Source: a virus
IMG/VR virus record: IMGVR_UViG_3300018080_000112
Coordinates: 32,001 to 96,000 of that record
DNA: 64,000 bases
Reading direction: 5' to 3' (one strand)
Shown here: positions 14,836 to 51,469 of the stretch, in pieces
Layout: every line of letters starts with the position of its first letter
How positions within the stretch are numbered: position 1 is the first letter of the stretch
Program-made: the position numbers and the translations under genes
Notes under the pieces: model-generated
What the model was told of the DNA's origin: nothing
The model's input: the letters and a program-made list of their open reading frames with translations, nothing else
Databases searched by the model: none

Positions 14836-14873
14836 AATCTTCGATCTCCTCCGGTTACAAAAGCACATAAAAC

Positions 14874-25164: not shown

Positions 25165-25363
25165 TCAAGGCTGTTGATCTCTCTACAGAAATACGCTCAA
25201 GGCTGTTGATGCGTCTGTCCAAAGTGGGCGCGGCGGTTGACATTAGACTCCTTTTTCTACCTGGCTGTTGACTCGTGGGAATACCGCTTCAAGACTATTG
25301 ATCCCTCGTCTCTGATTTTTCAAGGCTGTTGACAAGGACAAATCAATGACGCAAGGCTGTTGA
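25165..25363 (+). repeat. Phased TCAAGGCTGTTGA box array A (7 units)
   Basis: 13-bp boxes at 25165, 25197, 25228, 25259, 25289, 25320 and 25351, separated by 17-19-nt variable linkers. Confidence 0.9.
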
Positions 25364-25394
25364 TACCCTTGACGATCCCACGTGGATATTGCTC

Positions 25395-25850
25395 TTATAC
25401 CCTCGGATCTCTCCGCGCTACAGGAACCTCCAGTCCCTTCTCAATGTAATACGCCAGCACACCCTCCGCGACCTTACCCAACTCCTCTACAGCTTCCCCC
25501 GGTGTCTCTCCTGTTTGACTGCATGCGCTGTGACCGAAATCCGGTAGCCACGCCAACCAATAGCTGTCTTCACCGTCCTCCATCCACTGCAAAGAGACCG
25601 GATACAACCTCAAAATCTCATCACCCGTTAACTTCTCCCCGTTGTAAGGGTGCGTACTTTCCGGACATAGCGGCTTGTACTTACCAAAATTGTAACGGTC
25701 ATTGTAGTGCTGCATCGCCGCCGCCCACGAAAGCGCCTCAAAAGACTCTACATGCTTCCGATCCACACCAAAAGCTAAATCCTTCTGTGTGTGATTCTCC
25801 GGGACCAAACCAGCATCACCGTCCGCCGTCTCCCATATCTCAAATTTCAT
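25395..25850 (-). CDS. HicB-like domain protein with an N-terminal extension
   Basis: C-terminal half 'YPVSLQWMEDGEDSYWLAWLPDF..CSQTGETPGEAVEELGKVAEGVLAYYIEKGLEVPV' matches the HicB antitoxin fold pattern. No hicA seen adjacent. Confidence 0.7.
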   Translation of the reverse strand: MKFEIWETADGDAGLVPENHTQKDLAFGVDRKHVESFEALSWAAAMQHYNDRYNFGKYKPLCPESTHPYNGEKLTGDEILRLYPVSLQWMEDGEDSYWLAWLPDFGHSACSQTGETPGEAVEELGKVAEGVLAYYIEKGLEVPVARRDPRV

Positions 25851-25860
25851 CTCTCTTCTC

Positions 25861-26155
25861 CCCAGGCTGTTGACCTCGAAACCGTCTCTGGTTCAAGACT
25901 GTTGACTTTCTGAAACACTGAAACAAAGCTGTTGACCCTTGTGAGATATCTTTTCAAAGCTGTTGACCCTCCGAAACCTCATAGCCCAAGGTTGTTGACA
26001 TTTCGTCTCTTACGCAAACAAAGCTGTTGATATCCTCGATAACGGTTCTCAAGGCTGTTGATCTCTCCACAGAGATACGCGCAAGGCTGTTGACTATCTG
26101 CAGGTTGTCGCTCAAGGCTGTTGATTTCGCCAATGACGGAACTCAAGGCTGTTGA
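25861..26155 (+). repeat. Phased TCAAGGCTGTTGA box array B (10 units)
   Basis: Boxes at 25861, 25893, 25923, 25954, 25986, 26018, 26049, 26081, 26112 and 26143 (period 30-32). Confidence 0.9.
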
Positions 26156-26474
26156 CACAGACAGGAGCTTCACAGCTTCGATACATCCGTCACCACCACA
26201 TCATCTCCCTTCAGATCTGTCCGACAAACGACACGCGGTGACACACCTGCAAACTTCTCCCGATACTCCCGTATAACCGGCGAATCCAACTCCGGATAGA
26301 TCCCGTGAATGTTCCAGAACCCTACATTGTCCGACTCTTTGCGGAACTCTCCGTACAACCCGTAACTCATCTCGATCACCAGGTCACCCTCCGGCGATAC
26401 GTCAGCATCTAAGAACGCCTGCGCGATCACCTCGTGAACTCGATACTTCTCCTGGTTTGTCTGGCTCATCTGAC

Positions 26475-26993
26475 TCATCTGGCTTTTTTGAGAAAATTCC
26501 GATTGTCCGGAAGCGTCTCCATGATCTCCGTCACTTGCTTCAAAGACAACGGAAGATAGTTGTTGTTGTCCACTCCAACATCCCATTGTTTACCAACAGG
26601 AGGCAAACCGCCGTGACTGTGACCGTACAGTTGCCAACTGTTGTAATGAGAAAGACCCCAAACTCGCATCGCGTAATGACAAACCACAATGTGCTGACCC
26701 GAAAGCTTCTTCTCCCAGATCTCATGTGCTGTCTTGTCCAACCACTGGTCGTGACTACCGCGCAAAAAGATGTGCGTCCCGTTCAGAGCCTCCACATACC
26801 TTTGCGCATCTTCGCCCCGTCGTAACGTGAAATCACCAGCATGCACCACAATGTCATTGTCCGTGACCACGCTGTTGTGCAAACGAGCCAACTCCACATC
26901 CATCTCCTCCACCGTCGCAAACGGACGGTCACAGTACTTGATGATGTTCGTGTGTCCGTAGTGCTCGTCCGCTGTGAAAAAATATGTGCTCAT
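26475..26993 (-). CDS. Calcineurin-like metallophosphoesterase
   Basis: Motifs 'ADEHYGH', 'HAGDF', 'RGSHD', 'CHY' and 'YGHSH'. Confidence 0.9.
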   Translation of the reverse strand: MSTYFFTADEHYGHTNIIKYCDRPFATVEEMDVELARLHNSVVTDNDIVVHAGDFTLRRGEDAQRYVEALNGTHIFLRGSHDQWLDKTAHEIWEKKLSGQHIVVCHYAMRVWGLSHYNSWQLYGHSHGGLPPVGKQWDVGVDNNNYLPLSLKQVTEIMETLPDNRNFLKKAR

Positions 26994-27011
26994 CCCCGTA
27001 TCTACTCCGTT

Positions 27012-27270
27012 TCAAGACTGTTGACCTACCTAAAGAACTCAAAAAAGGCTGTTGACGATACATACTTACCTTTTCAAGACCGTTGACCCTGTTATTACGG
27101 GCAAAAAGGCTGTTGACCGTACCCGTCATGAAGCTCAAGGCTGTTGACACCTTCGCTGTTCCGCTCAAGGCTGTTGACAACGGTTTAGCCTTTTCTCAAG
27201 GCTGTTGACTATCAAGATGAGACAATCAAGGCTGTTGACTTGGACTCCCGACATCATTCAAGGTTGTTGA
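27012..27270 (+). repeat. Phased TCAAGGCTGTTGA box array C (9 units)
   Basis: Boxes at 27012, 27043, 27074, 27104, 27135, 27165, 27196, 27226 and 27258. Confidence 0.9.
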
Positions 27271-28719
27271 CTCAGGTGAAACTCCTAACGTCATCAATCT
27301 AACATCCGCTCTAACTCACGTACACGCTCTTGTAACGACGCTCGACCACGAGCCATCACTCCCATCAACTTCCAATACACGTCATGCAAATGATCCGGCA
27401 ATAACTCGCCTTCATCCAACTTACGACCGTCTACATGAAAACCTCCCGGCGATACACGCAACTTCTCCACCTCTGAACCATCATCCGCCAAGATCACAAA
27501 TATCAGGTCCTCGACAGCACCACATCCGTCCAAAAAATCACACATCGCTCGATACACCCGCTTGTCATGCGAACTGTGTACCTTTAAACCCCAAGTCTTA
27601 TCCTCCAACAAAACGTTGTCTGCACAGAAACCGTCCGTACCAACCTCCAACACCACGCGCTCTCCCACCTTCCGCACACGACCATCAGCACCCTCCTTCT
27701 CCACCGGTAATAGAAATCGGACACGATTGCTCTCGCCAACCCCGATCTTCACACCTCCAGACCCCACAACTACTCCCACCGCGTGACGCTCATCATCGAA
27801 ATCACTCCACTGTGCGCCAGCTTCCACTACAAAACCACCACTTCGATCCAACACCCCTGACCCCGCTTCGACCCCGCCTTCCTCACCGGACCCCACAGCG
27901 GAACTCGACCCCGACAACTCACGCGACTCCAACCACTCGTAATACCCCTCCACCAAACATCGAAACTCCACCGGCGTTACCAACAACGCCTCCTCCCTGT
28001 CCGATACAAAAATTCCCTCCTCCACAAATGACTCCGCAGATTGATCCGTCACATACGGTCGCGTGTCCCCTACCTCATCTCGATAATCCGACCAAACTCG
28101 ATCACCACTCACACGCATCACAAACGAATGACCCTTCCCACGTCCACCCCAAACCTGTCCTACCTCCACACGCTGTACCATCTCCCCTACGCTCCTTTCT
28201 ATTTCCCATCCCAAACGTTCACTTATAGAGACACAACTTTTTTCCAAATGTAACCACTACACCCATCATGAACCTATACACCAAGATTTTACCCCGCACA
28301 TATACACCCCCCTCTAACAACACAGACAAACACAGACCCACTTTCGCTGTCTCAATTTTTTCTCTGAAAAACTGACGCCAGAAATAATACATGACTTTTT
28401 TATCCAAATTTTTCTCAGAAAAATGTAGACCTGTTTCTTCACTGTAATTTTTCTCTGAAAAACTGAATTCCCACTAGGGGATACCTTACGATCTGCGTTT
28501 TGTAGTTTGGATAGGGGGGGGCATAAATCGCCGCCGAAAGTCGCCAAAAAGCGACCTAATCAGCGATCTGCGGCGCGTTCTCTGGTGCATGCGGCTGGCG
28601 GCTGGCGTCTCGTCCCTACATGCGTCCTTGCTATTCATTTACACGTTGTCGGCACATTCGCAAACGGCTCTGTATATACGTGTCTCTGGCAAAAGCCCCT
28701 AGCTGTTCAGATCAGCTTA

Positions 28720-28915
28720 TCAATATGAGCTTTATGATACGGCGCAGATGATCGGCGCAACTTGTCAATATGGGCTTTATGATATGACCGTTATGATACG
28801 ACGCTTTTGCAAAACGCTCTGTATGACAACTTGTCAATATGGCGTTTATGATACGGGCTTTATGATACGGCGCTTTTCATAGAGGGCTTTATGATATGGC
28901 GTTTATGATACGGTC
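28720..28915. repeat. Cluster of TTATGATAYG-like short repeats (left border of the island)
   Basis: About 7 TATGATA cores plus a repeated CAACTTGTCAATATG, in non-coding DNA. Confidence 0.75.
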
Positions 28916-28993
28916 GTTTTGGCGACACACAAAAAATGTTAGGACCTAACCCCAAGGCGCTTCCCCTGGCATGACTTTTGACGGCGGTGAAGT

Positions 28994-29111
28994 ACTGAAC
29001 AACTGACCGAAATTCCGAAGTACTGAACAGACCTTGGAAATCTGAGACTACTGAACAACTGACAGAAAAACGGACGGCGCGACTCCGGCGAAGAATCACT
29101 GAACAACTGAC
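28994..29111 (+). repeat. Iteron-like ACTGAACAACTGAC repeats
   Basis: Full copies at 28994, 29050 and 29098; partial ACTGAACA at 29022 (and at 29282, outside this span). Confidence 0.7.
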
Positions 29112-32100
29112 CGAAATTCGTCCGTCCAATTCCTACGCCGGACGTAGGTCAAAAAAAGCGCGAAGTCTTTTATCTCGTAGGGGGAGATTTTTTACCCGAA
29201 GTGACCTAAGTGATTGAAAATACTACGGCGAGATTTTGGCGAGATTCCGCGAGATTTGTAGGACGCGGAGCGGCTCTTGACACTGAACAGAACCGACTAG
29301 TTGCTTTGCGGCTTGCCTAGCAACGGACAACCGGCGGCGCACGGCATCTCGGCGCAGTCCAGATCATGCTCCGCCTGATACTCTTCGGGGTCCACATCAT
29401 CACCAAGGATTGGCGCGGCGTGATCCCGACAAGCACCTTCAGCCGATTCCTCTTGTGCAGCGCAGTGACGATCCCACGCCTCTACGTTATGATCGTAGCT
29501 CATTGGTCAACCTCCATTCTGGCTTGCGTTCTCCGCTTGCTCTTGGTCCTCTTGTTCCAGTTCCTTGGCAAGCTCAACACACTCCTCCAAGGGGTCCTCA
29601 ATGGCATAACACGCGGCGACAGGGTCATAACCGCAAGAGACCTCTCCGACCTTCTCCGCGATCCACTCTAGCTTTTCTCGTAGCTTTTTCGCCTTCATCA
29701 GTCAACCTCCAATCCATTCCGGCTTGAGTTCTTCGGGAATGAAGTCTTCCAGAAACACATCCCACGACCCGTCATCGTACTGACGTTCAAGGATGTAGCT
29801 GTTGGGTCCAAGGACCTTGAAACGAAGCGTCGTGTCCGCCGGAGGGTTCTCTGTGCCGAGATATCCCCACTCCTCCACGTGGTCATTCTCCCAATGATCC
29901 ATAAGCTCGCCAAGGGTGAAGGTCTGCGGCTCCTTCTCAAACGACTCAAGGTGCTCGCACTGTTCCTCGAACTCTCGATCCGCTTCGGGCTGATACAGCG
30001 CTTGGCGTTGCTTGCTATGCTCATCCAGTAGCTCGTTGGCGGTCTTGTGATGCTCGACAAGCATCTTCGCTTCGCCCGGTTTCAGTCCATCCCAGAAATT
30101 GCTCATTGTCCAATCCTCCAATCCGCAAAGGGTTACACTAGATCAAGGGCAAGCCTTTTTTCTGACTACTCTTCAAGCTCTTGCCACTGCAGCACACAAG
30201 GTCCGCCGCGCTCGAAAACAGGTCGCGGAATGGTCGCAAAGATCTTTTCCTGGAACATCATCTCGTCTACTTTGCGCGGACCAGGATCAAGGGTCAGTGA
30301 GTACATCCCGATCATAAAGACCTCGTTGGGGTAACGGGTCTCGAAGATCTGAACAGTCTCCGCCCCGCTTGTGACGTACCCAAACCGGCGGATATCCTCA
30401 AAGGCAATCGAGGGATAATAGCCACGCGGCTCTTTGGCGTAGTTCAGCTTGCCGGGGTCCGGGCTATCCAATAACAGCCTTGCACATTCCTTGAAGTACA
30501 ACCGCCGCTGGATCTGTTTCGCCGCTACGTACCCTTCATCTGTCAAGGTCCCGTGGGAGTCCAGCAAGCCACGGTTCTGAAGTGCTTGGACCTTTTGCTT
30601 GTGGAAGGACGGCTTGACCTTCCAGCCCTTCGAGCGGAGCACCAGCACCGCAAACAACTCTTGTCCCCTGTTCAGCTTTTTCATGTATCTGTTCCTTTCG
30701 CCGGGTTCGTGATATCCCGGTAGATCTCGAAAGCTTTCCGAACCACTTCGGATTGGTCGCCCGGTACGGCTCGCACAACGGTCTCAAACAGCGCATCACT
30801 GTCGTCTTCATCATCACACTCAAAGATATCTTGATCGTGCTCATAGGACCAGTGACGCCCCGTGTTGTGGTCATAGATGTTGATCGTATGACACTTGCCA
30901 GGGAGTTCCAGATCATAGACGTAATCCGTAACATCTGCAAAGGTCTCGAAACCATGAAGGACGGCGTCAGCCTTCAGAGCGCCGTTCACAAATTCGGTGT
31001 TGCCTGTGCTGAAAAGGTACAAAGTAAACCCTTGAAGCTTCGTCATTTTACCATCTCCCGTTGTCTGTTTGTCTGTCCTACTTAGCAAGACGTTAGCCGT
31101 TTCGAGATCTGACAAGGTTTCTGAAAAAGTTAGAAGCGAAGCACCTAAATAGTTAGAAGCGAAGCGCTGAAATAGTTAGGACCTACCCTTTTGGTCCGAT
31201 CTTCGCCAATCCTAACCAATCCTAGTCTTCCAGCAAGGGAAGCTTTTCGATGAATGCAACGGTCTCCGGAAGCGCTGTAAGCCACTTGCGCCGATAGTAG
31301 ACCTTCCAGCCCAAAGTGAGATCTTCAAGGGCACAGAAGGACGCTACAAAGGAACCGTACCAGCGAACATGTTCGGCGGTCTTGTGCTTCGGGTCCGCCT
31401 GATAAATAACCGGGTTGCCGGTACACTGCGACCGGACCTTCTTCAAGTTGTCCAATCCCGTAATCATATCGTGGGCGCGGGTCGCTTCGTGAATGAGTTC
31501 CGGAACAAATTGGGTCTTGCCTTGTTTCTGGTTCGCTTGCAATTTCATCGATCCCGCTCCTACTTCGTTAGGGTCCTGTTGGTAGAGACACACTTTCTAG
31601 CAAAGTGCATCCAGGTAGCTCAGAGAAAACTGTTGTCCGTCCACCACAATCTGATCAATATCAAACGGCGCATGGTACACAACACAGCCACGGCGGACCA
31701 GCTTAGCCAGATTACGAAGCTTCGTTGTGGGCTTGCGCTGGTAGTTCACACAAACGTTCGCCGTGAATCCCAATCCCGCCGCGTTCAACTCCTGAACCAA
31801 TTCCGCCTTCGAAGATGCCTTGCGTCGTTGCCTTGCCATTGTTCCAATCCTCCGCTTGTCTGGGGTCACCTTTCGGCTCCTCCGGGTCTATTGTTGTCTG
31901 TTTGTGTTTCCGTGTCTTGTCGTGGCTCTCTCAGCCATTGATTGCTTCCAGAATGCGAACCTTCAAAGAGAGGTCATACCAGATCTCGTAACCGAACCAG
32001 TAAGCTTTTCCGCAGTAGCTGAGATAGTGATCCTTGATGATCTCTTGAACTTCTTCGACCTTGTCCGCCGGGATCAAAAGCGCGGACTCTTTGATTGTTC

Positions 32101-32589
32101 TTGTATCGACCTGGTAGCCGCTCTTGTGGAAGGTCAAACCGTTTTTGAAAATGTCCGGGTGACACACCGTGGTCTGTTTCGCGCCACTGCGACCGACCTT
32201 CATCAAACCGTGGCAATACAAGAGAACATCGCCAGCCTTCAGCTTGCGCGTGATGTTGGTCGGACAACCGGCGTGCTTCCAAGAAAAGAACGTGGTGTCA
32301 AAACGAAGAGGTTCGCTACCGTAGCGCGGCGACAATCGCGGGGTCACTCCGAGCTTGACGCATGCGGTGTCAAAGAGACGCTTGTGAGTGTATCGAGCGA
32401 TCTCATAATCTTCGGTCGTTTCCAGCTTAGCTTTTTCCATCGATCCAATCCTCCATGAGGGAAAAGGGGTTGCACTTACATAAACAAGGTCAAGACTTTT
32501 TTCTGACTCTGCGCCGGTCAGAAGATCAGCGGAAAAGGGACGGAGAAGAGAGGGACGGGCTTTTTCTGACCCGTCCCCCCCGCCGGTCT

Positions 32590-34143
32590 CTACCAGCCGT
32601 TGCGAGCCTTGCGGACCACGATGGCGCTTTTGACGGCGCGAGTAAGAGCGGTGTAACTCCAGCGGTAAACTTGATCCGCTTCGTTCTCTGCGATGAAGTC
32701 AACCATGTCCGCGACAACAATGATTTCAGCGTACTGAGAACCTTGCGCGGCGTGGCAAGTGATGGCGTAACCACTGTCAAGGCTTGCCAGGTAGTGTTTG
32801 AGGTAAAGAGCGTGTGCGCCGTGTTTCCGTGCTTCCTGAGCGGTCCAGATAGCGACTAACCAGTTGGCGGCTTCTTCGTCCTTGCGAGCTTTCCAAGCGT
32901 CCTGTTTCTCGGCGACCTTGGCATAAATCTTTTCGCCGTGCTTGGCGATATCTTCCGCGATGAACTCTTCCATGTTCTTCTGGATGGAGTAGGGAACCAG
33001 ACCGCGATGTTTGGGCTGACAGTTACCATCCCAAGTTGCGCGGAGAACTGCGACCTCTCGTTCACGACCGTTGGCGACTCTCAAGACCCATCCGTCACCG
33101 AAGTTGGGACCGAAGTCAGCATGCTCAACTGATTTGACAGTGACCACATCGGAGTTGTTGAGACCGCCACCCTTGGCGCGACAGATGAGGCGCTCGCCTA
33201 CTTGCGGACCTTCGTTGCGGCGTGGCATGCCGAGAAAGTAGCGAGTTGCGTCATTCAATTCGGTGCGGGTTGCGTGGGTGCCTACGATTGCAGCGGCGTC
33301 ACCGTTGTTGGCGCGGAACATGTTCGCCAGAGTCTCGCCAGCTTGTCCACTGTCCATCCAGGGGCTACGAACACCGGCGCGGTCCAGAATCGCTTGACCC
33401 GCTTTGAAATCGGCTACGCGGCTGTAGGTGAAGGGGACCTTGCGGTTGCGAATGTTGGTTGCAGCGTTCAGGACCGGGGAAGCTTCCGCTTGGCGGTAGA
33501 CCTTGGAGAGAGTCACGGTTGCTTCGTGCAAGGGGAATCCGGCTTCTTCTTTGACCGGCGGAAGTTGGTGGGGGTCGCCGACCGCGATGATTTTTGTGGT
33601 CTCGGGAAGAGCGTTCCAGATATCGGCGGCGAACTCTTTGCCGACCATTGAAGCTTCGTCAATCACCAGGATGTTGCCGACCTTGGCGGTTCCAGGCTCG
33701 CGGCGATTGAAAGCAAGCTCATCACCGAATTCGGCGACCTTGACGACCTCGTTACCATCTTCGTCAAGCTCAACCTCTTCTTCGCGAATCTCTTCAGCAC
33801 CGGCGTAAACGATGGAGTGGGCGGTGACCACTTTCTTGTCTGCGAAGTCAGCGCCAAGGGCTTCTTGAAAACGACCCGCCGCCTTGTGGGTCGGTGCGGC
33901 GTTGGTGACGGTGTTGCGACAGTCGGTGAGAACCTGAAGGAGAAGCTTGAGAGTGGTGGTTTTGCCAGTGCCTGCAGCGCCGGGGAAGAGACAGAGACGC
34001 TCGCCAGCGGCGATTTGGCGGAGAGTGTGGGCGATGAGGTCACGTTGCTCGCGACCCGGCTCAAAATCAAGATTGTAGATGGAACAAAGAAGAGTTGTAC
34101 TTTCGAAAAGGTCGATTGCGGTTTGAAGGTCGGTCGGTCTCAT
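32590..34143 (-). CDS. Dda/RecD-like superfamily 1B DNA helicase
   Basis: Walker A GAAGTGKTT, 'APTHKAA', DEASM, 'GDPHQLPPV', 'YRQ', 'YAITCHAAQGSQY' and 'YTALTRA'. Confidence 0.92.
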   Translation of the reverse strand: MRPTDLQTAIDLFESTTLLCSIYNLDFEPGREQRDLIAHTLRQIAAGERLCLFPGAAGTGKTTTLKLLLQVLTDCRNTVTNAAPTHKAAGRFQEALGADFADKKVVTAHSIVYAGAEEIREEEVELDEDGNEVVKVAEFGDELAFNRREPGTAKVGNILVIDEASMVGKEFAADIWNALPETTKIIAVGDPHQLPPVKEEAGFPLHEATVTLSKVYRQAEASPVLNAATNIRNRKVPFTYSRVADFKAGQAILDRAGVRSPWMDSGQAGETLANMFRANNGDAAAIVGTHATRTELNDATRYFLGMPRRNEGPQVGERLICRAKGGGLNNSDVVTVKSVEHADFGPNFGDGWVLRVANGREREVAVLRATWDGNCQPKHRGLVPYSIQKNMEEFIAEDIAKHGEKIYAKVAEKQDAWKARKDEEAANWLVAIWTAQEARKHGAHALYLKHYLASLDSGYAITCHAAQGSQYAEIIVVADMVDFIAENEADQVYRWSYTALTRAVKSAIVVRKARNGW

Positions 34144-34617
34144 TGTCTGGCTCCTTGTTGCCGTTTGAGAAAAAATCAGTGCGCTTACAAAAACAAGGGC
34201 AAGACTTTTTTCTGACTCTGATCTTTTTCAGGATCACCAAAGAGGATCACCATGAAATAGGATCACGATCTGGGATTGGAGATCACCAAGGGGGATCAAG
34301 AGCGCCCAAGGGGGTCGGTACAAGCGACACCCTTTCTCTGGGGGTCCTTTTGTTGACCTATAGGTCACAGACAACGAGAAGGGGTCTGGCGAGCCTTTTA
34401 AGGCGTTTTGTGGTTTGCGAGACTTCTGGTATTCATCCCGGTCTCTTTGTGCGTTGTAGGGGTGTTTCTGTGATCCACTTTTGGCGGGTTCCTGGCTCTG
34501 ATCAGAAGGGTTAGGTCCTAACCTTGTTGTGTGGGATTGGAGCGGATTGGAGCGGAGTAGATCGGGTTGTGTGGGATTGATTAGGATCTGTTGGGATTGG
34601 AGCGGAGTGAATCGGAA

Positions 34618-35166: not shown

Positions 35167-35191
35167 TGTTCGGCTCCTTCAAGCGTATTTG

Positions 35192-36093: not shown

Positions 36094-36306
36094 GCCCGTA
36101 TTATAAAGGGCATATCATAACGACCTACCTGTAAAATCACCGTATTATATGAGCCGTATCATAATGACCGTATTGTTCGGCGGCGACTCTCATACAGCGC
36201 CGTATGATACGACTGTTTTATCAGGAACTCCTTTATGATATGACGCTTGTCATACAGGACGTTTTACCAGATAGGTCCGTATAATATGAGCTTTATAATA
36301 CGGTCA
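36094..36306. repeat. Cluster of TATNATA short repeats (right border of the island)
   Basis: About 8 CCGTATYATA / TATRATAYG cores in both orientations; same family as 28720-28915. Confidence 0.7.
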
Positions 36307-38723: not shown

Positions 38724-39326
38724 TCAAGGCTATTGATCTTGGTTGTAACATCCTGGTTCGAGGTTGTTGATCATTTACACTTCAAGCCGCAAGGTTGTTG
38801 ACTGAAAACGTTGATCTTCGTTCAAGGTTGTTGACTATATGTTATACCAAATCGCAAGGCTGTTTCCCCTATCTCGGGAGTAGTGCAAGGCTATTAATAG
38901 AGACACATGTTTTGTCAAAAGCGTACCGTTTTCGGGTACAAAAGTTTGCAAAGCTGTTGACCATGCGGAACTTCGCTGCAAGGCTGTTGATCGATGTTCC
39001 CGCCATAAACAAGGCTGTTTCCTTCTCGTAGCACCAAGCGAAGGCTGTTGACCGTTCGGAATGCTCTTCAAGGCTGTTGACCATTCGGAATGCTCTTCAA
39101 GGCTGTTGACCATGCGGAACTCCGCTTCAAGGCTGTTAATGATGCGGTTGTAGTTCAAGGCTACTGACTCCAATTGAGGAGCGGTTCAAGGCTTGTTGAC
39201 CGTAATCCTACCCGTGGTCAAGGCTGATGATGATGCTCTCACTTCTTTATCAAGGCTGTTTTCGTTACAGTTCCTTTCCGTCAAAGGCTGTTAACTCCGT
39301 TTGAGGGGCATTTGCAAGGCTATTGA
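38724..39326 (+). repeat. Phased TCAAGGCTGTTGA box array D (~19 units)
   Basis: Boxes from 38724 to 39314 at ~28-34 bp spacing; one 63-bp gap (38885 to 38948) contains a promoter-like motif. Confidence 0.88.
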
Positions 39327-41602: not shown

Positions 41603-41634
41603 GAGGACCTTGCTCCATCAGCCGTTGGGGGCTG

Positions 41635-42192
41635 TCATTTAAGTAGCCAAGCGTCTTGTATGAGGACCTGATTGACCACGCCGGGTTCAAACAGACCTTC
41701 AAACGTGACAAGGGACATTTCCTTTTTCCAAACCGTTAGCTGTTCAATCAAGGGGGCGAGTCTTTTGTTTCCAGTGACCAGCATAATGTGATCAATGGTT
41801 GGCGCTATGTTTATGATGTGCATGGTGATGAACATGTCTTGTTTGCCATGTTCCACGACCTCCACTTCATAGCCAAAAGAGCGTAGCGCAGTAATCAGCG
41901 GACCATAGACCTTCTCGCTCCCTTGTTGAACAACAAAGGCTTTCTTTAAAGTATAATCGCCAGTAATGGAGCAATTTTCAAGGGCAAGAGAGGGAAGACG
42001 CAAGAAATCCAGGCGGGATTTTCTTCCGTAGAGTCGGCGTATGCCGTAGGAAAGTGATTGTGCGTCAATAAACAATCCGATTCGTTGTAATTCGCCGGGT
42101 CGTTGGGTCCTTTGTGGTTTTCCGGCTCTTACTTTTTCAGATTGTTGTGTTGACACTTGCACTGTGTCATTAGGTTTTTGCATGTTGGACAC
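41635..42192 (-). CDS. NYN/LabA-like (PIN fold) protein, possibly degenerate
   Basis: 'GLFIDAQSL', 'ALRSFGYEV', 'KQDMFITM' and 'LVTGNKRLAPLIEQL'. Confidence 0.6.
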   Translation of the reverse strand: MSNMQKPNDTVQVSTQQSEKVRAGKPQRTQRPGELQRIGLFIDAQSLSYGIRRLYGRKSRLDFLRLPSLALENCSITGDYTLKKAFVVQQGSEKVYGPLITALRSFGYEVEVVEHGKQDMFITMHIINIAPTIDHIMLVTGNKRLAPLIEQLTVWKKEMSLVTFEGLFEPGVVNQVLIQDAWLLK

Positions 42193-42280
42193 GTTGGAAT
42201 AATTGGATCGTCCTTGTACATATCACCGCCGGGTTGAGTTGCCGGGGGTGCCGTTGTTTCTGGTTTCTGGTTGTCGTTGT

Positions 42281-42835
42281 TCATTCCTTTGTTTCTCCCA
42301 TCCCGAACTGACCAGCCAGTTCTGGGTTCTGGATAATCATATCCATTTTGAGCCAATTTTGTTCGAGTTCTTCACCCCACGCATCACACAGATATTCCGG
42401 CGGGGGTCCGGCGGGTCTCACATAGATACAGATCCGGGGGTAGCTTCCATGTTCTGCGATAAATTTGCGCGTGCGAACCGCCACAATTTGTTTGTCGTCT
42501 TCCCAGAGTGTGCCGTTTAAGCCGTCAAAGACCGCCTTCACAAGGTTGTCAATGTCTTCTCCGATACCGCGCCAGAGAATGTTCTTTCCGTGCTTTGCAG
42601 GGTGCTCTTCCATATCCTTCGGACGCTTGAAAACGAAGTCCAGATCAACCGCCAACGTTTCGCTCAAGATAAAAACGGGGTAATCTTCGCCATAGCCGAG
42701 AGTCCGCTCTATTTCCTTCTTGATCTCTTTCTCGAAGTTGTCCGTTCTTGCGGGTGTATAGGTCGTTCCTGTCTTGCGATTGAAGCGGGGTCGCCCTTTT
42801 GCAACCGGTGCGAGTCGTAGTTCAAATCGAAACAT
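42281..42835 (-). CDS. rusA: RusA-family Holliday junction resolvase
   Basis: 'PVAKGRPRF', 'TYTP' and 'DIDNLVKAVFDGLNGTLWEDDKQIV'. Start set at MFRF (42835) after a GAGGGG RBS. Confidence 0.9.
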   Translation of the reverse strand: MFRFELRLAPVAKGRPRFNRKTGTTYTPARTDNFEKEIKKEIERTLGYGEDYPVFILSETLAVDLDFVFKRPKDMEEHPAKHGKNILWRGIGEDIDNLVKAVFDGLNGTLWEDDKQIVAVRTRKFIAEHGSYPRICIYVRPAGPPPEYLCDAWGEELEQNWLKMDMIIQNPELAGQFGMGETKE

Positions 42836-43969
42836 GGTTATCCCCTCTTTCGACGCACTAGAGTCGGAAGAGAAGAGCGCCTTTGTTGCGTTTGTTGTTG
42901 TGGTTGTGGTGCCGGTTGATTGTCTTGCGGCTGATGGCTGATTCCCATGTTGGGATCTTGCGCTTGTTGTTGTGCCTGTTGTTGCTGAATAAGCGCCGGT
43001 GGTGTGTTGCCCCACGCATCTTGCAAGCGACCGTATTGATCGCGACCTTGCCAGCGGTCCTGATAATCTGAGCGCCGATATCCGCCGCGCTTTCCCTGTA
43101 CAGGTTGTCCGGTGTTCGGGTCTATTGTGATCTCTCCGGTAGGATCTCCAGGAGCACCGGCGTTGAGATCTTCCATCCAGTTTTGTTGTGTGATGTTCTG
43201 CGCCGCCACTTGTGGGTTCCACACTTGCACCGGTTGTGCTTGTTGTATCGGGGTTGTGATGCTCTTTGTCACTTGATCAAAAGGCATACCAGATTGCTGG
43301 TTCGCCATCATGTGCTGGTCAATAGGAGAGTTCTGAACAATCTGGTTATTTTGTCCGCTTCGTGGTCGTGGGTCGAAATTGGCAAAGTGCGGCTTTCCGC
43401 CCTCCTGTACTATCTTTTCTGAACCTCTTTCGAAGCGGTCACGGGGTCTCTCGTTGAGCTTGGCTTGCAGTTCTGGGGGAATAGGGGGACGCGCATGTTG
43501 TTCGCCGTAGGGGTCTTGATAGGCTCGCTGTTGGGTCTGTTGTTGCGATACCTGGTCACGTCTTGCACTACGAGAGAGCGCCCTTCCTTGAACAATCTTC
43601 ATCTTGACCTTGGTTTGTCCGCCGCCTTGCCCGAGTATTTTCTCGACAGCACCGACAGAACCGGGCGCAAAATGTGATTCAGGAAGGTTGAATTGTTCCC
43701 CGATAAACGTAACACCGGGAATTGGTATGATAACCCTTCCTTCTCGGATTATGATGCTCATAGCTCTTTCTCTCCTTCCGGAGATCGTAGCACATCTCTT
43801 TTGCGGGGTAACAATTTTTGTTGTTTTAGGGTCCAAACGTGATTGTTAGGACCTAACCTTTGGATGGCAATTGCGCCAAATAATCTTTGTCGCATGGAAA
43901 AAACCTCCATTTCTATCCCTTGGTGTGTAAAAGATTAGCGAAACAAAAGAAGTGATGGGAGTTTGTAAC

Positions 43970-45979
43970 CTACACACCAAAACAGCAAGATGATCCGTTC
44001 ACATCTCGTTCAACCACTATACCGTGATTAAATCGCTGATTCAACTGTTCATTGTGGGTGACTACAATTGTGGTGTTGATCCCTTTTCTCTTTGAGACAC
44101 AATGAAGCAACTCCATCATGTTCTCAACTCCCGCCTCATCGACGTTTTCGAACACTTCGTCCAGTAGACTCAAGCCGAGACCTTGACCACGCGCCAAGCT
44201 GAGATCTTGCAACGCCAGCGCAAGGGGAACATCCAGCCGCCGCTGTTCGCCACTACTACAGCTTTCATAACGCACGTTCTCACCGGTCTTTGTCTGCACT
44301 ATGATGCTGATCTTTTCCCGCTTCTCACCCTTGGCGGTCTCGCTCTGAATGGACAACTGCGCCACAAGCTCGCCGCTGGTCATAATGTCGGCATACTCGA
44401 ACAGTCTCTCGTTCACCTCTGGAAGTAGATTTTCCAGGAGAAAAGAGCGGATTCCTTTGGTCCCGAACACATTCACAAGCACGTTCAGCTTTTTGATCTC
44501 CTGGTCAACTGCGTCTCTCTCTTTGCGGGTCTCTTCTTCCTTCCGAACGTGCTGTTCAAGCTCTTTTCTCTCGCTCGCCAATAGCTCTTCAAAGGGGGAT
44601 ATTTCTTCTCGTGTTTGCTGTACACGCTCTTTCAGCGCATCAATTTCGTGTTGTTTATGCTCCTGTTTAAAAGCCCATTGGTCATAGTTGATCTTTCCCT
44701 TGTACAGGGTGTCATGTTGCTGATCCAGTTCCCAATAACGCTTGGAGAAGCGCTCTTTCTCCGCCTCTATTTCCCTCTCAATATTGCGCTTATTCACCGG
44801 GAGTGTTTGACAAACGGTGTACTGTTTGGATTGTTGGTCAACCAAAGAATCTATTTGTTCGTTTAGTTCCGTAGAACCGGGAAAAACAGCATCATCCACC
44901 GTTTGTCCACAAGTAGGACACGAACCGCTATCAATGAGCTTTGACCGGCGATTCACTTCCTTCTCTAGCCCACTTCGTTCCGCTGTTATTCGAGCGTACT
45001 CTTTATCAGCGTCGCGGATCTGTTTTTCCAACGGGGGGATCTTCTCTTGTAGCTCTTTGATTGTCTCCTGATGGTTATCATTCTCCGCCGCCAATTGTTT
45101 CTTCGCTGCATCGATTTGCTCTTGTGTCACACACGGCGGCTCCTTCTCCGTCGTTCTTTCCAGGTCTCGGATCTGGTTGCCAAGCGCTTCAAACTTGGCG
45201 CTTCTGTCACGGGTCCACTGGTCTTGTCGTTGTACCAGGTCAATCAACCGGCTCCTCTTTTGGTCGATAATCTCCAATTGTTGGATTCGCTTGTTTGCCA
45301 GTACCCTGAGTTCTTCCTTCTCCTCTTTGCGCCGATCCTTGGCGATCTTTTCCGCCTTCGTGTAGAGATGAATCTGCAAAATCTCTTCCAGTAGCTGTTT
45401 TTTTGCGGTGTCAGATAGCCCGGAAAAGCACGGCATTCCGCCTTTACCGAACAAGGTCACTTGACGGAACATGTCACGAGACAAGCCGATCAGCTTGATA
45501 ATCTTCCGCTGTGTTTCGTCCTTGTCTGCGCCGCGTAGATCTTGAGCCACTAGGGTGGGTTTATCCATCAGCGCAATCGGCTCCTCTGTGAGTTCTGGCG
45601 CGTCCGGGTCATTGTACAGCCACAAGAACAGTTCGTTCTTGAGCTTTGGATGGGAGTGGAAGCGTTCAACCTGGTAGATCTCTTTTGTCTGGGAGTTGAC
45701 AAAGGAGACAATCGAGAATGTCCCTTTTGTCTTCTCGCCAGCTTGCTCCAGGATTGACGCTCGTGTGGGTATTTCCTTCGAAAGGATGTTCCGAAGCATC
45801 TTTCCATAGAGCGCGAAATAAAGCGCCTCAAACAACGCGGATTTGCCAGCACCGTTATTGTTCTGACTGGTAGATCGGTGGTTGATACCGTACAAGCTTA
45901 TCAGCCCAAGATCTAACAGGTCCAATTGCATCTTTATGAAGCACAAGAAATTCTGTGCAAGGACACGAATAATGTACAT
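43970..45979 (-). CDS. sbcC: SbcC/Rad50 (T4 gp46-like) SMC-family ATPase
   Basis: 'NGAGKS' Walker A, coiled coil with a CPTC zinc hook, 'SSGEQRR' signature, 'LLDEVFENVD' and 'VVTH'. Confidence 0.92.
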   Translation of the reverse strand: MYIIRVLAQNFLCFIKMQLDLLDLGLISLYGINHRSTSQNNNGAGKSALFEALYFALYGKMLRNILSKEIPTRASILEQAGEKTKGTFSIVSFVNSQTKEIYQVERFHSHPKLKNELFLWLYNDPDAPELTEEPIALMDKPTLVAQDLRGADKDETQRKIIKLIGLSRDMFRQVTLFGKGGMPCFSGLSDTAKKQLLEEILQIHLYTKAEKIAKDRRKEEKEELRVLANKRIQQLEIIDQKRSRLIDLVQRQDQWTRDRSAKFEALGNQIRDLERTTEKEPPCVTQEQIDAAKKQLAAENDNHQETIKELQEKIPPLEKQIRDADKEYARITAERSGLEKEVNRRSKLIDSGSCPTCGQTVDDAVFPGSTELNEQIDSLVDQQSKQYTVCQTLPVNKRNIEREIEAEKERFSKRYWELDQQHDTLYKGKINYDQWAFKQEHKQHEIDALKERVQQTREEISPFEELLASERKELEQHVRKEEETRKERDAVDQEIKKLNVLVNVFGTKGIRSFLLENLLPEVNERLFEYADIMTSGELVAQLSIQSETAKGEKREKISIIVQTKTGENVRYESCSSGEQRRLDVPLALALQDLSLARGQGLGLSLLDEVFENVDEAGVENMMELLHCVSKRKGINTTIVVTHNEQLNQRFNHGIVVERDVNGSSCCFGV

Positions 45980-48461
45980 GATTTGTTCTCCGAATTAGAT
46001 CAGGTGAGTGTGGTAGCAAGAAAGGATAGAGACCGTTGTTAGAGCGCTTCCGGCTCTTGATACAGGAACCAGTTAGCGGTGATACCACGCTCCTTTTGTT
46101 CCTTTGTTGGAGGGGGGCTTGTCAGTACATACCAGCCGGTCATGTTGCGACCTACGCCAGTTTTCCACGCCTTTGCTCTGTGGATTGCCTTGGCGATATC
46201 CTCTATATCACCGGTTGCTTTGTACCATTCATCTTGTTTCCGCAAGTTGTTGACCAACTCCGGGTCCGCTGGAAAGAGTTGCAGGGGGTAATCGATCCCT
46301 TTGACCTCCAGGAAGAGACCAAACTGAGAATCATCCCCAGAAGAGACCATGGACTTCTCTTTTTCATCGATCTGAGCGGGTTCTGTGGTGGAAGACAAGA
46401 GGATTGGCGAGAACTCCATCTCTTTGTTCGGGTCAATCTCTTCCTCCATCAGAAGCGTACAAGAGGGACACCTGATGTAGTTCGGATCGTCCTTGTCTTG
46501 TGCGCCGCCGATCTTTGCAGCGTTGAGACCCAACATTTGACACCGGGCGTTGAACTCAATACAGCACGGGGGACGTTGTTGTTCAATCCCGCTATAGACC
46601 GCTTGAAAGACCACATAACGCGGGTCAGATAAGACGCCAAGAACATCAATTTGCATCTCTTGAAGCTCTTCCATGGTCTTGTTTGCAAGTTCGTCAAGCA
46701 TCGCTTTCTTCTGTTCTTTGGTGAGAATCTTCGAGGTATCTGGAACCTCTTGTGCTTCCGCTTCTGCGGGGGGTGCAGGTTCTGGATCATCATCCCCTTC
46801 CGCCAGCTTTGCAATCTCGGGGCTGAAAATGGTGTTCCAAATCTTGTTGACTTCTTCGTTCTCACCGCCGACTTCGTCAATGAGGAAATCAGCCAGTTCT
46901 TGCAGCATAAGTTTCCCGGTTTCCGGTGCGGCGAAACTAACAGATTGCCAGATCTTGTTCAACTGTTTCGCTGCATCTTTCGGGACATGTTCAGATGCTT
47001 TCTCGCAAAACTCTGCAATCTTCTCCAGCAAGGTCGGCTTGTTCTCTGGTAGTTCGCCACGGGTCACCGTCATGCTCGACATCTTCGGGATCTCATCTTC
47101 CTCAAAAGACTCCTCCAGATATTCGATCTTCAATTCTTCACCAGGGTCTGAACCGACCTTATCCAGCGTAACGCCGTCCTCTCGTGCGTGACCTTCTGCA
47201 ACCAGCCGCTGGACCTCTTTCGCCTGTTTTGCAAGATCTTCGGGGGAGTCGCCCACAAAGAAATTGGCGGAGTCTTCATACTCTTGTTGTAACCGCGCTT
47301 CTGTTGCAGCGCTCTCCTTCTGTGCGTCCTTCACAACCTGGTTGTCTTTGGGGCGCAAAAAGATATCCGCCGGGATCTCCGTCTCTTGCTTCACCGGCTC
47401 TTCAGGCATAAAACCACCGCCGTACACTGGAACAGGCTTTTCTTTCTCTGGGGGCGGAACTTCATCACTTTTCAGTGCTGTTTTGAGCTTTTCATGTTCC
47501 GGGGTGGTCTCTTCTTTGGGCTTGATCTTCGATGGGATCTCAGACGGCGTCATGGTGTGGAATTGCGTATCGCTTGCGCCGCGTTCATCCACAATCCCGC
47601 CGTGATTGTTTAACCAGCGAATGAGGTCATTCATGTCCTTGTCAGAGGTAGAACCGAGCATAATCATCCACGGCTCGCTGGTTCCAATCCTGTTCATCCC
47701 CAACAAGGAAAGGGTGGATTTCCCTTGCTCCACAAACTTCAACTCTGGGGGTCCTTTTTTCTTCTTCATCTCTCTGTGTTCTCCTTCTGTGTTCGCCGTG
47801 TTATCGGCTCGCTTATTGATGCATCTTCGCAAGCTCTTCGTATGTTCTTTCGATCAGTTCCACGAGATAAGCCACCGCTTCCTTGAAGTAATCCTGTCCA
47901 AATATCATGGGGAGTTCTTGTGTGTCTGGTAACACATACCACGGGTGTACATGGAAACAGTAATCGGCGGGGGCTAATCGAGGGACATCAACTCTGTGCA
48001 GTCGCCGATCTGGTACAATCTCGACACTCCCGATTGGCAACATTCCGCCGTCTTCTTGCTTCGGATTTGTCCAGTACACAAGGAAAGAACTGGCGCAGTT
48101 CCCCATGTAGACTATGACTGCATTCAGTTCTTCTCCGAAGTATTGCCCCAATTTCAGTGACCCCTGGACCGCTTGTTGAAGGTAATGATCATCTGTGGAT
48201 TGACCAGCCATAGGCTCGATTTCAGGAGCCGTTGTTTCACCGTCCGCAACTACTTTGTTCCATTTTTCCTTGAACACATCTAGTTGTTCTGGTGTTAGGT
48301 CTCCTTTTACATTCAACATCCCCTTGACTGTCCCGTCCTCTTTCTTTTCCATTCTATCCTCTCCATGTTCAAAGCTATCGAAAATTGTTCTTTACGCCAT
48401 AACCATGTTTATAGAGACACACCTTTTGTCAAAAGCGTACCGTTTCACAATAAAAAAGTTT

Positions 48462-48652
48462 TCAAGGTTGTTGACTAGGGGTGGTTCAAGACTGTTGACT
48501 AGTGTGACTTACAAGGTCAAGGCTATTGACCGAGTCAGAATCTAAGTTCAAGGCTGTTGATATCGGTCGGATACGGTTTCAAGGCTGTTGATATCGAGCC
48601 GCATACAGGTCAAGACTGTTAACAAAATGCGGATTGGGTTCGTAGCTGTTGA
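48462..48652 (+). repeat. Phased TCAAGGCTGTTGA box array E (7 units)
   Basis: Boxes at 48462, 48486, 48517, 48548, 48579, 48610 and 48640. Further pairs at 49166/49197 and 51181/51214. Confidence 0.85.
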
Positions 48653-48667
48653 CCTTCTCGAAAAGAG

Positions 48668-49153
48668 TCACGGTTTCGCCATTATCTTTTTGATCTTACG
48701 CATAAGGACAGGTGTCTTCATGCGCATGGGGCGTCTCTTCCGGGCTGGTGGAAAAGGCATGTTTTTGACTACCTTGTTTGCGAATCGTTTATCCGGTAGA
48801 CCTGCGGCGGATTTGTTTGCTTCAGCAAAGAGGCGAAACAACCGCATTGTCTTCTCTTCAGAACTGACCTTGTGGTACTTTTCAATAAGAGATTTTATCT
48901 TGTCGTAGTTCTTTCCATAAACGCGCATCCCCAACAAATCAACCTTTTGGTCAATGGCAATCATCTGGTTCTGTTGTGACCGCAACAAACGGAATGCTGC
49001 AACTGACATTTTGTGTTGCTTCTTCATGTTGTCAGAGACTACTTTCACGTAATATCCGACCATTGTGACAACCAGGAAACCGATAATACTGAAAGCTGTT
49101 GTTGCCCAAAACTTCCAGGACGGACCTCGTTTTGTGGTCTCTTCATCGCTCAT
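48668..49153 (-). CDS. Single-pass membrane protein with a basic C-terminus
   Basis: Hydrophobic 'FWATTAFSIIGFLVVTMVGYYV' near the N-terminus. Confidence 0.5.
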   Translation of the reverse strand: MSDEETTKRGPSWKFWATTAFSIIGFLVVTMVGYYVKVVSDNMKKQHKMSVAAFRLLRSQQNQMIAIDQKVDLLGMRVYGKNYDKIKSLIEKYHKVSSEEKTMRLFRLFAEANKSAAGLPDKRFANKVVKNMPFPPARKRRPMRMKTPVLMRKIKKIMAKP

Positions 49154-49224
49154 CTTGTTCTCCTTTCAAGGCTATTAATATAATACGCATCACATTTCAA
49201 AACTGTTGACTGGATCGCCTAAAG

Positions 49225-50592
49225 TTACCCGATAAAGAACTTGATCAACGATTCTACATTGACGCCGAACTGATTGCCAAGGGACTGCGCCAGCCGGAAC
49301 ACGACACCCTTTCCGATTCCTTTGCCGACCGCCGCCGCCAACTTTATCGCGATCTGCATCTTGCTCATGCCATGCAGAACAGGCATCACTTCAGTTTGTT
49401 CCAGCGCCTCCATCTCTTCCATGACCTCTGGGGTCTGTTCCTTGTTCTCAAGCTCGTCAAGGCGCTTCAAGACCTGTTCAAAGCTCATGTTAAGCGTGGC
49501 GGTCTGTTGCGCGTTCTCGGCAAGCTCTTGTTGAAGCGCTTCGTTCTCCGCCTTCATGCGCCGAAGTTGTTCCTCTTGTTCCTCTCTCTCCTTCTCCTTC
49601 TTTGCCTGTTCTTGCTCCTCCTGGTAGTTTTGCAGAACATGAAGATACTCTGATAACGGTATCCGCGACAACTTACGATAGTCGATTTCTTCCAGCGGAT
49701 AATTTAAGTTGTCTGGACTCACTTCATCCACAAGGTCAACCGAAGGGGGAATATCAGCGCAAACCTTCCAGTCTACACGAACAATGACCGCACCCGGCTC
49801 CTGGTCTTGTAAGACAACGCCGTACCAGTCCGGGAAATGAAGCGGCGAATAAACGGGATCTCCAACCTTGAAATCCTCATTTTTCACCTTGTTGTGTTCT
49901 TCTAAGAGAGACAAATACTCTGTTAAGGGGACACGTTCAAGCTGGTTCGAATCAATGTATATAAGCGGATATGCTGCAGACTCGATAATTTTCCAATCCA
50001 CGTTCACAAAGGTGTCATATTCGGCTTGATCGTCCTGTATAACGCCGTAACTTCCGGGATAGTAGTTGGGAGAACAAACAGGATCTCCCTTTTTGTAGGG
50101 GGTATTCTCTGGCGTGCCGTTCTTCTGCATCGCGATAACAAATTCGTGAAGCGGCGCTCTTTCCAGGTTATAAGTTTGTTCGCAATCCGAAGGGTAATAA
50201 AGAGGATCTTTTGCACACCAGTCAATGGTCACATTAAACTGGTCTTGCATCATCGTGACCACACCCATGCTGGTTCCGTAGGATGTGAACTTATGGCGGA
50301 CCACGTCACCGACAGAGAGGTTTTGACCTTCTGTCTTTTCATACCTCTCTTGTTCCTTTTGCTGTTCTAGTCGCTCTTGTTGCTGTTCCAGGTCTCGGAT
50401 CTTCAAGAGCACTTCATCAGAGACCACATCTTTCAGCGCGTTTAGTTGCGCCACGACTTCCGCCGTTTTGTCTACTGATCCGGTCACCTCGTGTTTTTGG
50501 CTATCAGAAGCAACCAAGTCTACGTATTCTTGTCCTGTTAGGTGTCCATCTTTGTCATATGTGTATGCTTTTGTTGTTGCCATGTTCTTCAT
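49225..50592 (-). CDS. Protein with three tandem KOW/SH3-like repeats and coiled coils
   Basis: 'LSVGDVVRH..MGVV..IDW..LER', 'YKKGDPVCSP..YGVI..VDW..LER' and 'FKVGDPVYSP..YGVV..VDW..LSR'. Confidence 0.6.
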   Translation of the reverse strand: MKNMATTKAYTYDKDGHLTGQEYVDLVASDSQKHEVTGSVDKTAEVVAQLNALKDVVSDEVLLKIRDLEQQQERLEQQKEQERYEKTEGQNLSVGDVVRHKFTSYGTSMGVVTMMQDQFNVTIDWCAKDPLYYPSDCEQTYNLERAPLHEFVIAMQKNGTPENTPYKKGDPVCSPNYYPGSYGVIQDDQAEYDTFVNVDWKIIESAAYPLIYIDSNQLERVPLTEYLSLLEEHNKVKNEDFKVGDPVYSPLHFPDWYGVVLQDQEPGAVIVRVDWKVCADIPPSVDLVDEVSPDNLNYPLEEIDYRKLSRIPLSEYLHVLQNYQEEQEQAKKEKEREEQEEQLRRMKAENEALQQELAENAQQTATLNMSFEQVLKRLDELENKEQTPEVMEEMEALEQTEVMPVLHGMSKMQIAIKLAAAVGKGIGKGVVFRLAQSLGNQFGVNVESLIKFFIG

Positions 50593-51469
50593 CTCCCCTG
50601 ATGAATAAAACCGGTCAATATTGTAACGGCGCTCCTCTTGTGCGCCTTTTAATCAGTCAACACCATCTCTGACCTTGTTCGCCTCAAGGAACGCCTTCAC
50701 GTCTTCCGGATTGGCTCTGGCGCGGTCTCGCATGGTCTCGAACTCATGATCTGTCATAAGCAACACTTCTTCTTCCCCGGTGCTGGTGTCTTTGATCGCC
50801 TTTCCATCATGTTCTACTTGCACCACGAGATAGTTCTGATCGGACCCAAAACGGCGCTCTTTGTTATCGATACGCATCACACGACCCAAAAGACCCAACG
50901 ACTGACCCATAAAATTCCAAAAACCCATTGTCTTGATCCTTTCGGCTGTTCAGGTTATTTTTGTTCCTTTTCCATGGTGATTCTTGCAGATCGTTTGTTC
51001 TCTCCAGGAACAACTTCGCGAATTGTGCGCTCCACTTCCTTCTCCTGGATGTAATTCAAGCCACACCCAAGCTCGATACCGACCACACTGAAAAAATCCT
51101 TCAGGTCTTCACGAGAAGAACCGTCCGGAACATCGATCTCACCGTATATTCTGACCTTCATAACAACTCCTTTTGTTGTTTCAAGACTGTTAACTGATGC
51201 TCGTTTCTGGGGTGCAAGGCTGTTGAAGATTGTTGTCTCCTGACACCCGGAAAAGGTTAGGACCTAACTATCAGCACGCGAGCATGAAAACAAACAGCGT
51301 TACCTATTAGAGACACATTTTTATCCGAAAACGAACCGTTTTCCAGTGAAATAAAACCACCTTTTGACAACTACGACCTGAAACCCCAACAAAATCAAGG
51401 AAAAAGGTCCGCTCACAAAAGAGTAACCAGAAGCACCCCATAAAAAGCACCAAGAAATCAAACACAAAT

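Follow-up and report, generated by a model that had tools for sequence, protein, structure and literature searches.

IscB, an RNA-guided transposon nuclease, works with a noncoding RNA (ωRNA) in which a guide of 16-17 nt is followed immediately on its 3' side by a ~14-nt guide-adaptor strand (PMC9640706). In OgeuIscB the guide-adaptor hairpin has 14 bp, stands directly 3' of the guide and is the counterpart of the repeat:anti-repeat duplex of Cas9 (PMC9640706). CRISPR-associated IscBs, such as DelIscB (Altae-Tran et al. 2021), are active and have a repeat, a spacer and an anti-repeat (PMC12660989). Their guide is about 16 nt, and they are regarded as an intermediate between IscB and Cas9 (PMC12660989). 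Here we describe short repeated boxes in an uncultured phage with a genome of ~144 kb, which may serve its IscB in a related way. The window analysed is a 64,000-nt stretch, bases 32001-96000 of a 143,941-bp IMG/VR phage record (IMGVR_UViG_3300018080_000112, judged 89% complete), and "genome" refers to the whole record (G000). With moderate confidence, we take the boxes to be the repeats of dispersed mini repeat-spacer arrays and the segments between them to be putative trans guides for the phage's own IscB, in a variant of the CRISPR-associated IscB arrangement.

The box, TCAAGGCTGTTGA(Y), has 53 matches in the window at up to two mismatches, against a mean of 2.1 and a maximum of 8 in shuffled sequences, and 51 of the 53 are on the + strand. 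An earlier note on this stretch, made from its letters alone, had described more than 50 co-oriented boxes at about 31 bp, and both the boxes and all of its arrays are present. The scan of the genome and relatives that it proposed extends the pattern. A position weight matrix (PWM) made from box copies gives 98 forward and 8 reverse matches in the whole record, and the genome-wide total is ~95-110 copies, nearly all on the + strand and almost only intergenic. About 100 units lie in ~20 intergenic arrays over at least 90 kb of the genome. The boxes are phased direct repeats with a period of 31±1 bp, or about three helical turns (31 bp, n=25; 32 bp, n=15; 30 bp, n=10; 29 bp, n=4; 33-34 bp, n=4). 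Gaps of 61-63 bp correspond to two periods; a promoter-like motif lies in one of them, and the second contains a box into which 1 nt is inserted.

Since nearly all genes are on the minus strand, transcripts read the unit as a variable segment, then R, then UCAACAGCCUUGA. In the RNA sense the unit is thus 5'-(16-18 nt variable)-R-UCAACAGCCUUGA-3'. The repeat proper is 13-14 nt, and the full motif is 14-15 nt, as the Y that follows the box on the + strand is the R before the box in the RNA. Boxes avoid coding sequence, with 84 of 109 outside minus-strand open reading frames (ORFs), though such ORFs make up 78% of the genome. The motif is one base (Y) longer than given in the earlier note. Its TCAA/TTGA symmetry does not hold up as a hairpin: all four pairs of the proposed UCAA-CAGCC-UUGA mini-hairpin form in only 46 of 109 boxes, with no compensatory change. 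The changes seen among boxes are dominated by C-to-U, and G-to-A is also common.

Between the 13-nt boxes, the variable segments (spacers) span 16-19 nt, most often 18 if the purine at -1 is counted in, and they sit 5' of the repeat. This length fits the 16-17-nt guide of IscB (PMC9640706, PMC12660989). Their inner composition is unbiased. The recurring linkers of the earlier note are real. Ten spacer pairs share at least 13 positions, against 0-1 in shuffles. They form eight families, six of which occur in both G000 and a relative, with 88-100% identity; of these six, at least three are in non-homologous arrays. Synonymous sites are saturated between the phage lineages, so the near-identical spacers are either selected or recently exchanged. 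Inert linkers would not readily explain spacers kept in this way.

Outside the window, the minus strand of the phage at genome 3072-4466 encodes an IscB of 464 aa (RRXRR E=3e-68, plus HNH). Its identity to cyanobacterial and Chloroflexota IscBs is 55-59%. All residues that do not vary in a set of 15 other IscBs are kept, including D79, E176, the Cys/His/Asn set of the HNH domain, and H329/D332. Against its two closest metagenomic relatives the ratio of nonsynonymous to synonymous substitution (dN/dS) is 0.04-0.06, with dS 1.2-2.0, and the phage IscB is under strong purifying selection. Only ~40 nt separate iscB from its upstream gene, and the same interval is 25 and 14 nt in the relatives L016 and L017. 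The HEARO model has no match in genome 1-14000, so no ωRNA is detectable upstream of iscB. No box array adjoins iscB either, and most units are dispersed far from it.

An ωRNA is found elsewhere. The HEARO model (RF02033) aligns over its full length to the minus strand at genome 17074-17257, 12.6 kb from iscB (58 bits, E=3.6e-10), and the pseudoknot strands GCCUC/GAGGC are aligned. The RNA has a conserved 3' extension of ~115 nt that reaches genome ~16950. Relative L035 has the same ωRNA (52.8 bits), and L023 has its 3' part, as the contig ends inside the ωRNA. The stems vary in a compensatory fashion between lineages, and one hairpin is expanded. The ωRNA follows a tRNA-like gene in a small RNA operon. 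The linker between the two is only 8-10 nt and variable in sequence, so that, provided the tRNA-like gene is processed, no space remains for a 16-nt cis guide. In G000 and L035 this operon has box arrays on either side, and in L023 it has them downstream.

The small-RNA region that holds the ωRNA has other members. The tRNA-like gene is unusually long at 110 nt (L009 17268-17377, minus strand). A tmRNA (transfer-messenger RNA) scores 133 bits at L009 14912-15323 (minus strand), and a weak Y RNA-like (YrlA) match is found at L009 15436-15536 (minus strand).

The start of the box resembles a strand that the phage ωRNA has lost. Both the HEARO consensus and three transposon relatives start the scaffold with GUCA(A)... 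and close the helix with ...UGAC, followed by CAG. In the phage ωRNA the guide-adaptor hairpin is collapsed to AUCAGC, a 5-nt loop and GUUGAC-CAGCC, a stretch that is identical in G000 and L035. The box opens with (G/A)UCAAC directly 3' of the variable segment, as does the consensus 5' strand GUCAAC after the guide. By this position and sequence the box resembles the missing 5' strand of the ωRNA hairpin, with a potential 7-bp pairing to UGUUGAC.

The ωRNA transcript has three segments that are complementary to the box: 7 nt at the guide-adaptor position (GUCAACA:UGUUGAC), 8 nt internally, and 9 nt in a 3' loop. Apart from this locus, no 330-nt window of the genome contains three segments of 7 nt or more that are complementary to the box (Poisson p=0.0016). 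The internal segment, UUCAAGGC, lies within a 41-nt insertion in the ωRNA that differs by one base between G000 and L035. The 3' segment, GGCUGUUGA, is an exact complement of the box core and occupies the loop of a 13-bp hairpin in the 3' extension. This loop is invariant in three lineages, and one pair of its stem reads G.U, U-A or U.G. Among the 109 boxes, 74 are able to pair over all 9 nt with the loop, and most of the changes are C-to-U, which keeps a G.U pair. Wobble compatibility of the variants is not decisive as a test of RNA pairing, given that G-to-A is common beside the dominant C-to-U.

These features suggest a possible mechanism. We infer the transcription and processing of the arrays, the pairing of the box with the ωRNA, the use of the units as guides, and their targets. 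The arrays would be co-transcribed with the genes beside them. The first bases of the repeat, (G/A)UCAACA, would pair with UGUUGAC, the retained 3' strand of the collapsed guide-adaptor hairpin. This intermolecular pairing would rebuild the guide-adaptor helix and place the variable segment at the guide position of a one-piece ωRNA. The 3' hairpin loop GGCUGUUGA can base-pair with this repeat over 9 nt, and may thereby capture or present it. DNA with a match to the variable segment would then be the substrate that IscB cuts. It is possible, though we put this more tentatively than the guide role itself, that the phage has built a minimal two-part guide system without CRISPR adaptation genes, consisting of one trans scaffold RNA, one IscB, and ~100 units with a 13-14-nt repeat that are scattered over untranslated parts of its operons.

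All arrays in the window read on the minus strand, and their boxes were counted at a PWM score of at least 9. Array A (window 25165..25363) has six clear boxes and one or two degenerate ones, and lies between two minus-strand genes. Its spacer GTCATTGATTTGTCCTTG (RNA sense) is kept 18/18 in relative L028. Array B (window 25861..26155) has 10 boxes and array C (window 27012..27270) has nine, both with spacings of 30-32 bp. Array D is the largest (window 38724..39326), with 17-18 boxes. The homologue of array D in relative L025 has seven boxes with unrelated spacers between conserved flanks. Array E (window 48369..48652) has eight boxes, with a promoter-like motif near its downstream end (~48420), and its spacer CCTTGTAAGTCACACTAG is kept 17/18 in L027, but in another array. 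Two short arrays follow, F (window 49090..49209) with three boxes and G (window 51181..51236) with two or three. The arrays listed in the earlier note all stand, and the set is larger than the window: the PWM scan places further arrays at genome 7.3, 9.0, 10.2, 16.8, 17.6, 22.7 and 96.3 kb.

No terminators or sigma-70-type promoters above chance are found between arrays A-D and the adjacent genes, and these arrays should therefore be co-transcribed with their neighbours. The phage has a promoter-like motif, roughly GTGGT-N5-TTTG-N2-AAAA-N2-3-TGTGTCTCTA, with ~20 copies genome-wide, always on the gene (minus) strand. Examples are at window 38895-38940, 48410-48455, 28234, 16558, 7462 and 2156. 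The TGTGTCTCTA motif is probably the phage's own promoter class. It sits within, or at the downstream end of, several arrays. The copy in array D (..GGTACGCTTTTGACAAAACATGTGTCTCTA, window 38895..38940, minus strand) accounts for the promoter-like gap there, and the earlier note was right that this gap spans two periods and keeps the phase. With the motif embedded in array D, about six units would fall in the 5' leader of the next gene. The copy at genome 17526 appears to drive the tRNA-ωRNA operon. A palindrome, GTTAGGWCCTAAC, also recurs in or directly beside box arrays in all lineages (G000, genome ~16810-16825; L017, ~590-605; and the downstream arrays of L023 and L035).

A metagenome scan for box pairs returned 13 contigs, of which seven (L023-L029) are true relatives; the other six (L018-L022 and L030) were discarded as unrelated coding tandem repeats. 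The box is unchanged in relatives whose flanking genes have 65-80% nucleotide identity. Homologous arrays differ in unit number (18 vs 7 in array D) and in nearly all spacers, with the flanks conserved. Strain-level copies from five other samples are 99.98-100% identical, and so are uninformative on array dynamics. No close relatives are found among cultured phages or in IMG/VR by DNA, nor by peptide scans with TerL or IscB. TerL is less than 30% identical to that of myoviruses of Proteobacteria, and a TerL search of genomes found no prophage relatives.

A phage-like Logan contig (L034, from SRR33230361) shows a different arrangement. It has an IscB that is 58% identical and a canonical cis ωRNA (103 bits), with features at 215-1734 and 8826-11016, and no comparable short-repeat arrays. 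L034 may represent the state before the guide and the scaffold were split. The contig also carries a Ro60/TROVE gene with a YrlA-like RNA.

Several results weigh against a guide role for the units. The ωRNA match of 58 bits is below the Rfam gathering score of 83. The proposed pairings are very short (7 and 9 bp), and roughly one box in three has a change that disrupts the 9-nt pairing. The best box-ωRNA duplex beats 98% of shuffled boxes, which is only p=0.018, and cofolding of single units with the ωRNA is too weak and inconsistent to be informative (-2 to -15 kcal/mol). The box and the anti-repeat are the same in all relatives, so there is no covariation that could be tested, and the purine before the box is explained by neither pairing. 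Cas1, Cas2 and RNase III were not found in the phage, and with Cas1 and Cas2 absent there is no evident route of spacer acquisition. Array D includes duplicated spacers that are diverging, a pattern more like growth by duplication than uptake of foreign DNA.

Targets are also lacking in the scans made. In the phage, and in ~40 kb of sequence from relatives that lies outside arrays, no protospacer beyond chance is found. Five spacers scanned against IMG/VR gave one 18/18 match, which is about the chance level. Within this scope, the search of linkers against phage sequences that the earlier note suggested gave no target beyond chance. The single match, the only candidate protospacer, is at L069 3120-3137 (IMGVR_UViG_3300030372_005099), inside a 228-aa ORF of an unrelated 27.6-kb viral contig. 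It is exact over 18 nt to the conserved array A spacer, and 19/20 for the L028 version. No second spacer from arrays A-D matches L069.

In array D, at window 38960-39125, two near-duplicate spacer pairs have internal dyad symmetry (GCGGAGTTCCGC / GCGAAGTTCCGC; CATTCCGAATG / CATTCCGAACG). Instead of guides, such pairs may be small elements with a structure of their own, or they may have been left by a recent duplication of units.

The main rival to guide arrays is a DNA lattice, in which the boxes are phased sites for a cooperative DNA-binding protein of phage or host (an activator, a silencer, or a scaffold for the nucleoid or for packaging), with linkers that are mere filler and a likeness to the ωRNA that is coincidence. 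The tight spacing of about three helical turns is what such a lattice would have, and the two-period gaps hold the register; a spacing of 31±1 bp is equally expected from guides of 16-18 nt and a repeat of 13-14 nt. Several arrays end just upstream of the promoter-like motif, and for the copies at genome 17526, 70906 and 80420 the 300 bp upstream contain 6-7 boxes. A 393-aa protein with three helix-turn-helix (HTH) domains (HTH_31, sigma-70 region 4 and HTH_3) is encoded beside array A, at window 23389-24570 (minus strand). It is a candidate regulator, and for a lattice the obvious candidate to bind the boxes, which contain TTGAC, though nothing links the protein to them. Tandem sigma-70 promoters built from the TTGAC of the boxes were rejected, since promoter-like sites on the + strand are at chance level. 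The phage record (89% complete) has no match to ParB_N or Rep3_N, and the lattice that the earlier note preferred has gained no support. A lattice also leaves unexplained why the box starts like the consensus ωRNA strand, why the ωRNA locus is uniquely rich in box complements, and why arrays flank the ωRNA in three lineages. It does not account for an intact IscB without a guide, or for linkers kept at 88-100% despite saturated neutral sites. We consider a DNA lattice improbable, though it is to be taken seriously. The other possibility raised in the earlier note, a repeat-spacer RNA array, is better supported in a modified form, with IscB and a trans ωRNA that lie outside the window and with its mini-hairpin dropped.

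The boxes could also act as an RNA-level repeat with spacers that are not guides, docking the ωRNA 3' loop or an RNA-binding protein from mRNA leaders and trailers. They might punctuate polycistronic transcripts or make them more stable, time or titrate the IscB ribonucleoprotein, or serve as a sponge. Their orientation along transcription, their position in untranslated stretches without terminators between genes, and the 74 of 109 boxes that pair over all 9 nt with a conserved loop, most changes keeping G.U, are consistent with this. The diverging spacer duplicates suggest that the unit rather than the spacer multiplies, and the spacer scans gave no targets. Such a role would leave IscB without a guide despite strong purifying selection, and would require neither a narrow spacer length of 16-19 nt nor selected spacers; there is also no conserved mini-hairpin for a protein to recognise. 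We give it somewhat less credence again than a lattice. Least of all do we credit a selfish or neutral minisatellite, a functionless unit spread between genes by slippage and recombination. Unit numbers of homologous arrays do differ greatly (18 vs 7), units recur in non-homologous arrays, and many copies are degenerate. Yet the box is identical across lineages with saturated synonymous sites, the strand bias is strong (98 forward vs 8 reverse), and the spacers are narrow in length and unique in sequence, unlike slippage repeats. Such an origin is very improbable.

Other genes in the window include a SbcC/Rad50-like ATPase (window 43970-45979, minus strand) and a 1005-aa protein with five DnaJ-type CXXCXGXG zinc-finger repeats (window 53525-56542, minus strand). 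A B12-dependent ribonucleotide reductase (window 51648-53528) is one of the very few genes on the + strand. Two four-repeat arrays with a 29-nt type I-E-like repeat and a 61-bp period lie beside a TnpB gene, at window 13320-15084. Their repeats are near-identical to array repeats of Vibrio ruber, Proteus hauseri and some lactobacilli. A host could not be assigned from this repeat, as the matching arrays in Vibrio, Proteus and lactobacilli are too scattered to use.

Full-text literature searches found no paper that describes an arrangement of boxes, IscB and trans ωRNA such as this. If the units are guides, an RNA-guided transposon nuclease would become a multi-guide weapon with almost no extra machinery. 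The scaffold would lose the 5' strand of one hairpin, that 14-nt strand would be multiplied with different guides, and operon transcription would deliver them. The guide repertoire would then be a by-product of ordinary phage gene transcription and would be timed by it. Phages would gain an added way of carrying large guide repertoires. Such a system would repeat, independently and in very compact form, the step by which a one-piece ωRNA became crRNA and tracrRNA, and so would bear on the origin of that pair. It would also set a natural lower bound on the length of the repeat:anti-repeat handle, and suggest very short handles for multiplexed IscB editing. If the units form a DNA lattice instead, they are a striking but more ordinary regulatory repeat.

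Phased direct repeats that are bound cooperatively are known from iteron and centromere-like arrays. Mycobacteriophage stoperators are short, asymmetric intergenic sites that are co-oriented with transcription, but they are single sites and not 31-bp phased arrays. No cognate ParB or Rep was found in the phage, and neither the iteron nor the stoperator model predicts complements in an ωRNA. Jin et al. 2025 reportedly describe TranC, or TnpB with captured CRISPR arrays. The arrays beside TnpB in this phage (~13.3-15.2 kb) share the theme of a transposon-type RNA-guided nuclease rewired to arrays, and the boxes are unrelated to their type I-E-like repeats in sequence and in geometry.

The arrays are not canonical CRISPR-Cas, as the repeat is 13-14 nt where well over 20 nt is typical, and Cas1 and Cas2 are missing. 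The earlier note had judged fairly that the geometry matches neither CRISPR nor TIGR; it does match the geometry of the IscB ωRNA (PMC9640706). The phage shares with the Cas9 crRNA:tracrRNA pair a two-part guide logic, with a trans scaffold that would pair at the helix equivalent to the guide adaptor (PMC9640706). It differs from type II CRISPR in that Cas1, Cas2 and RNase III are absent, the repeat is far below CRISPR length, and the arrays are dispersed in operons.

CRISPR-associated IscB is closer. As there, the noncoding RNA appears to be split into repeat-spacer units and an anti-repeat scaffold, and there is no transposase. The phage repeat is 13-14 nt with complementarity of 7-9 nt, rather than a long repeat:anti-repeat duplex, and its units lie in ~20 dispersed intergenic arrays, not in one locus upstream of iscB. 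The scaffold, which carries an additional conserved 3' module of ~115 nt, is encoded in a tRNA operon at a distance of 12.6 kb from iscB. The canonical transposon IscB-ωRNA (OMEGA, HEARO) is matched by the whole-model ωRNA alignment and by the geometry of a guide followed by GUCAAC (PMC9640706). Unlike that system, the phage has neither a cis ωRNA before iscB nor a guide on its ωRNA. Its guide-adaptor hairpin is collapsed to a 5-nt loop, and the 5' strand of that hairpin appears to be multiplied ~100 times elsewhere in the genome.

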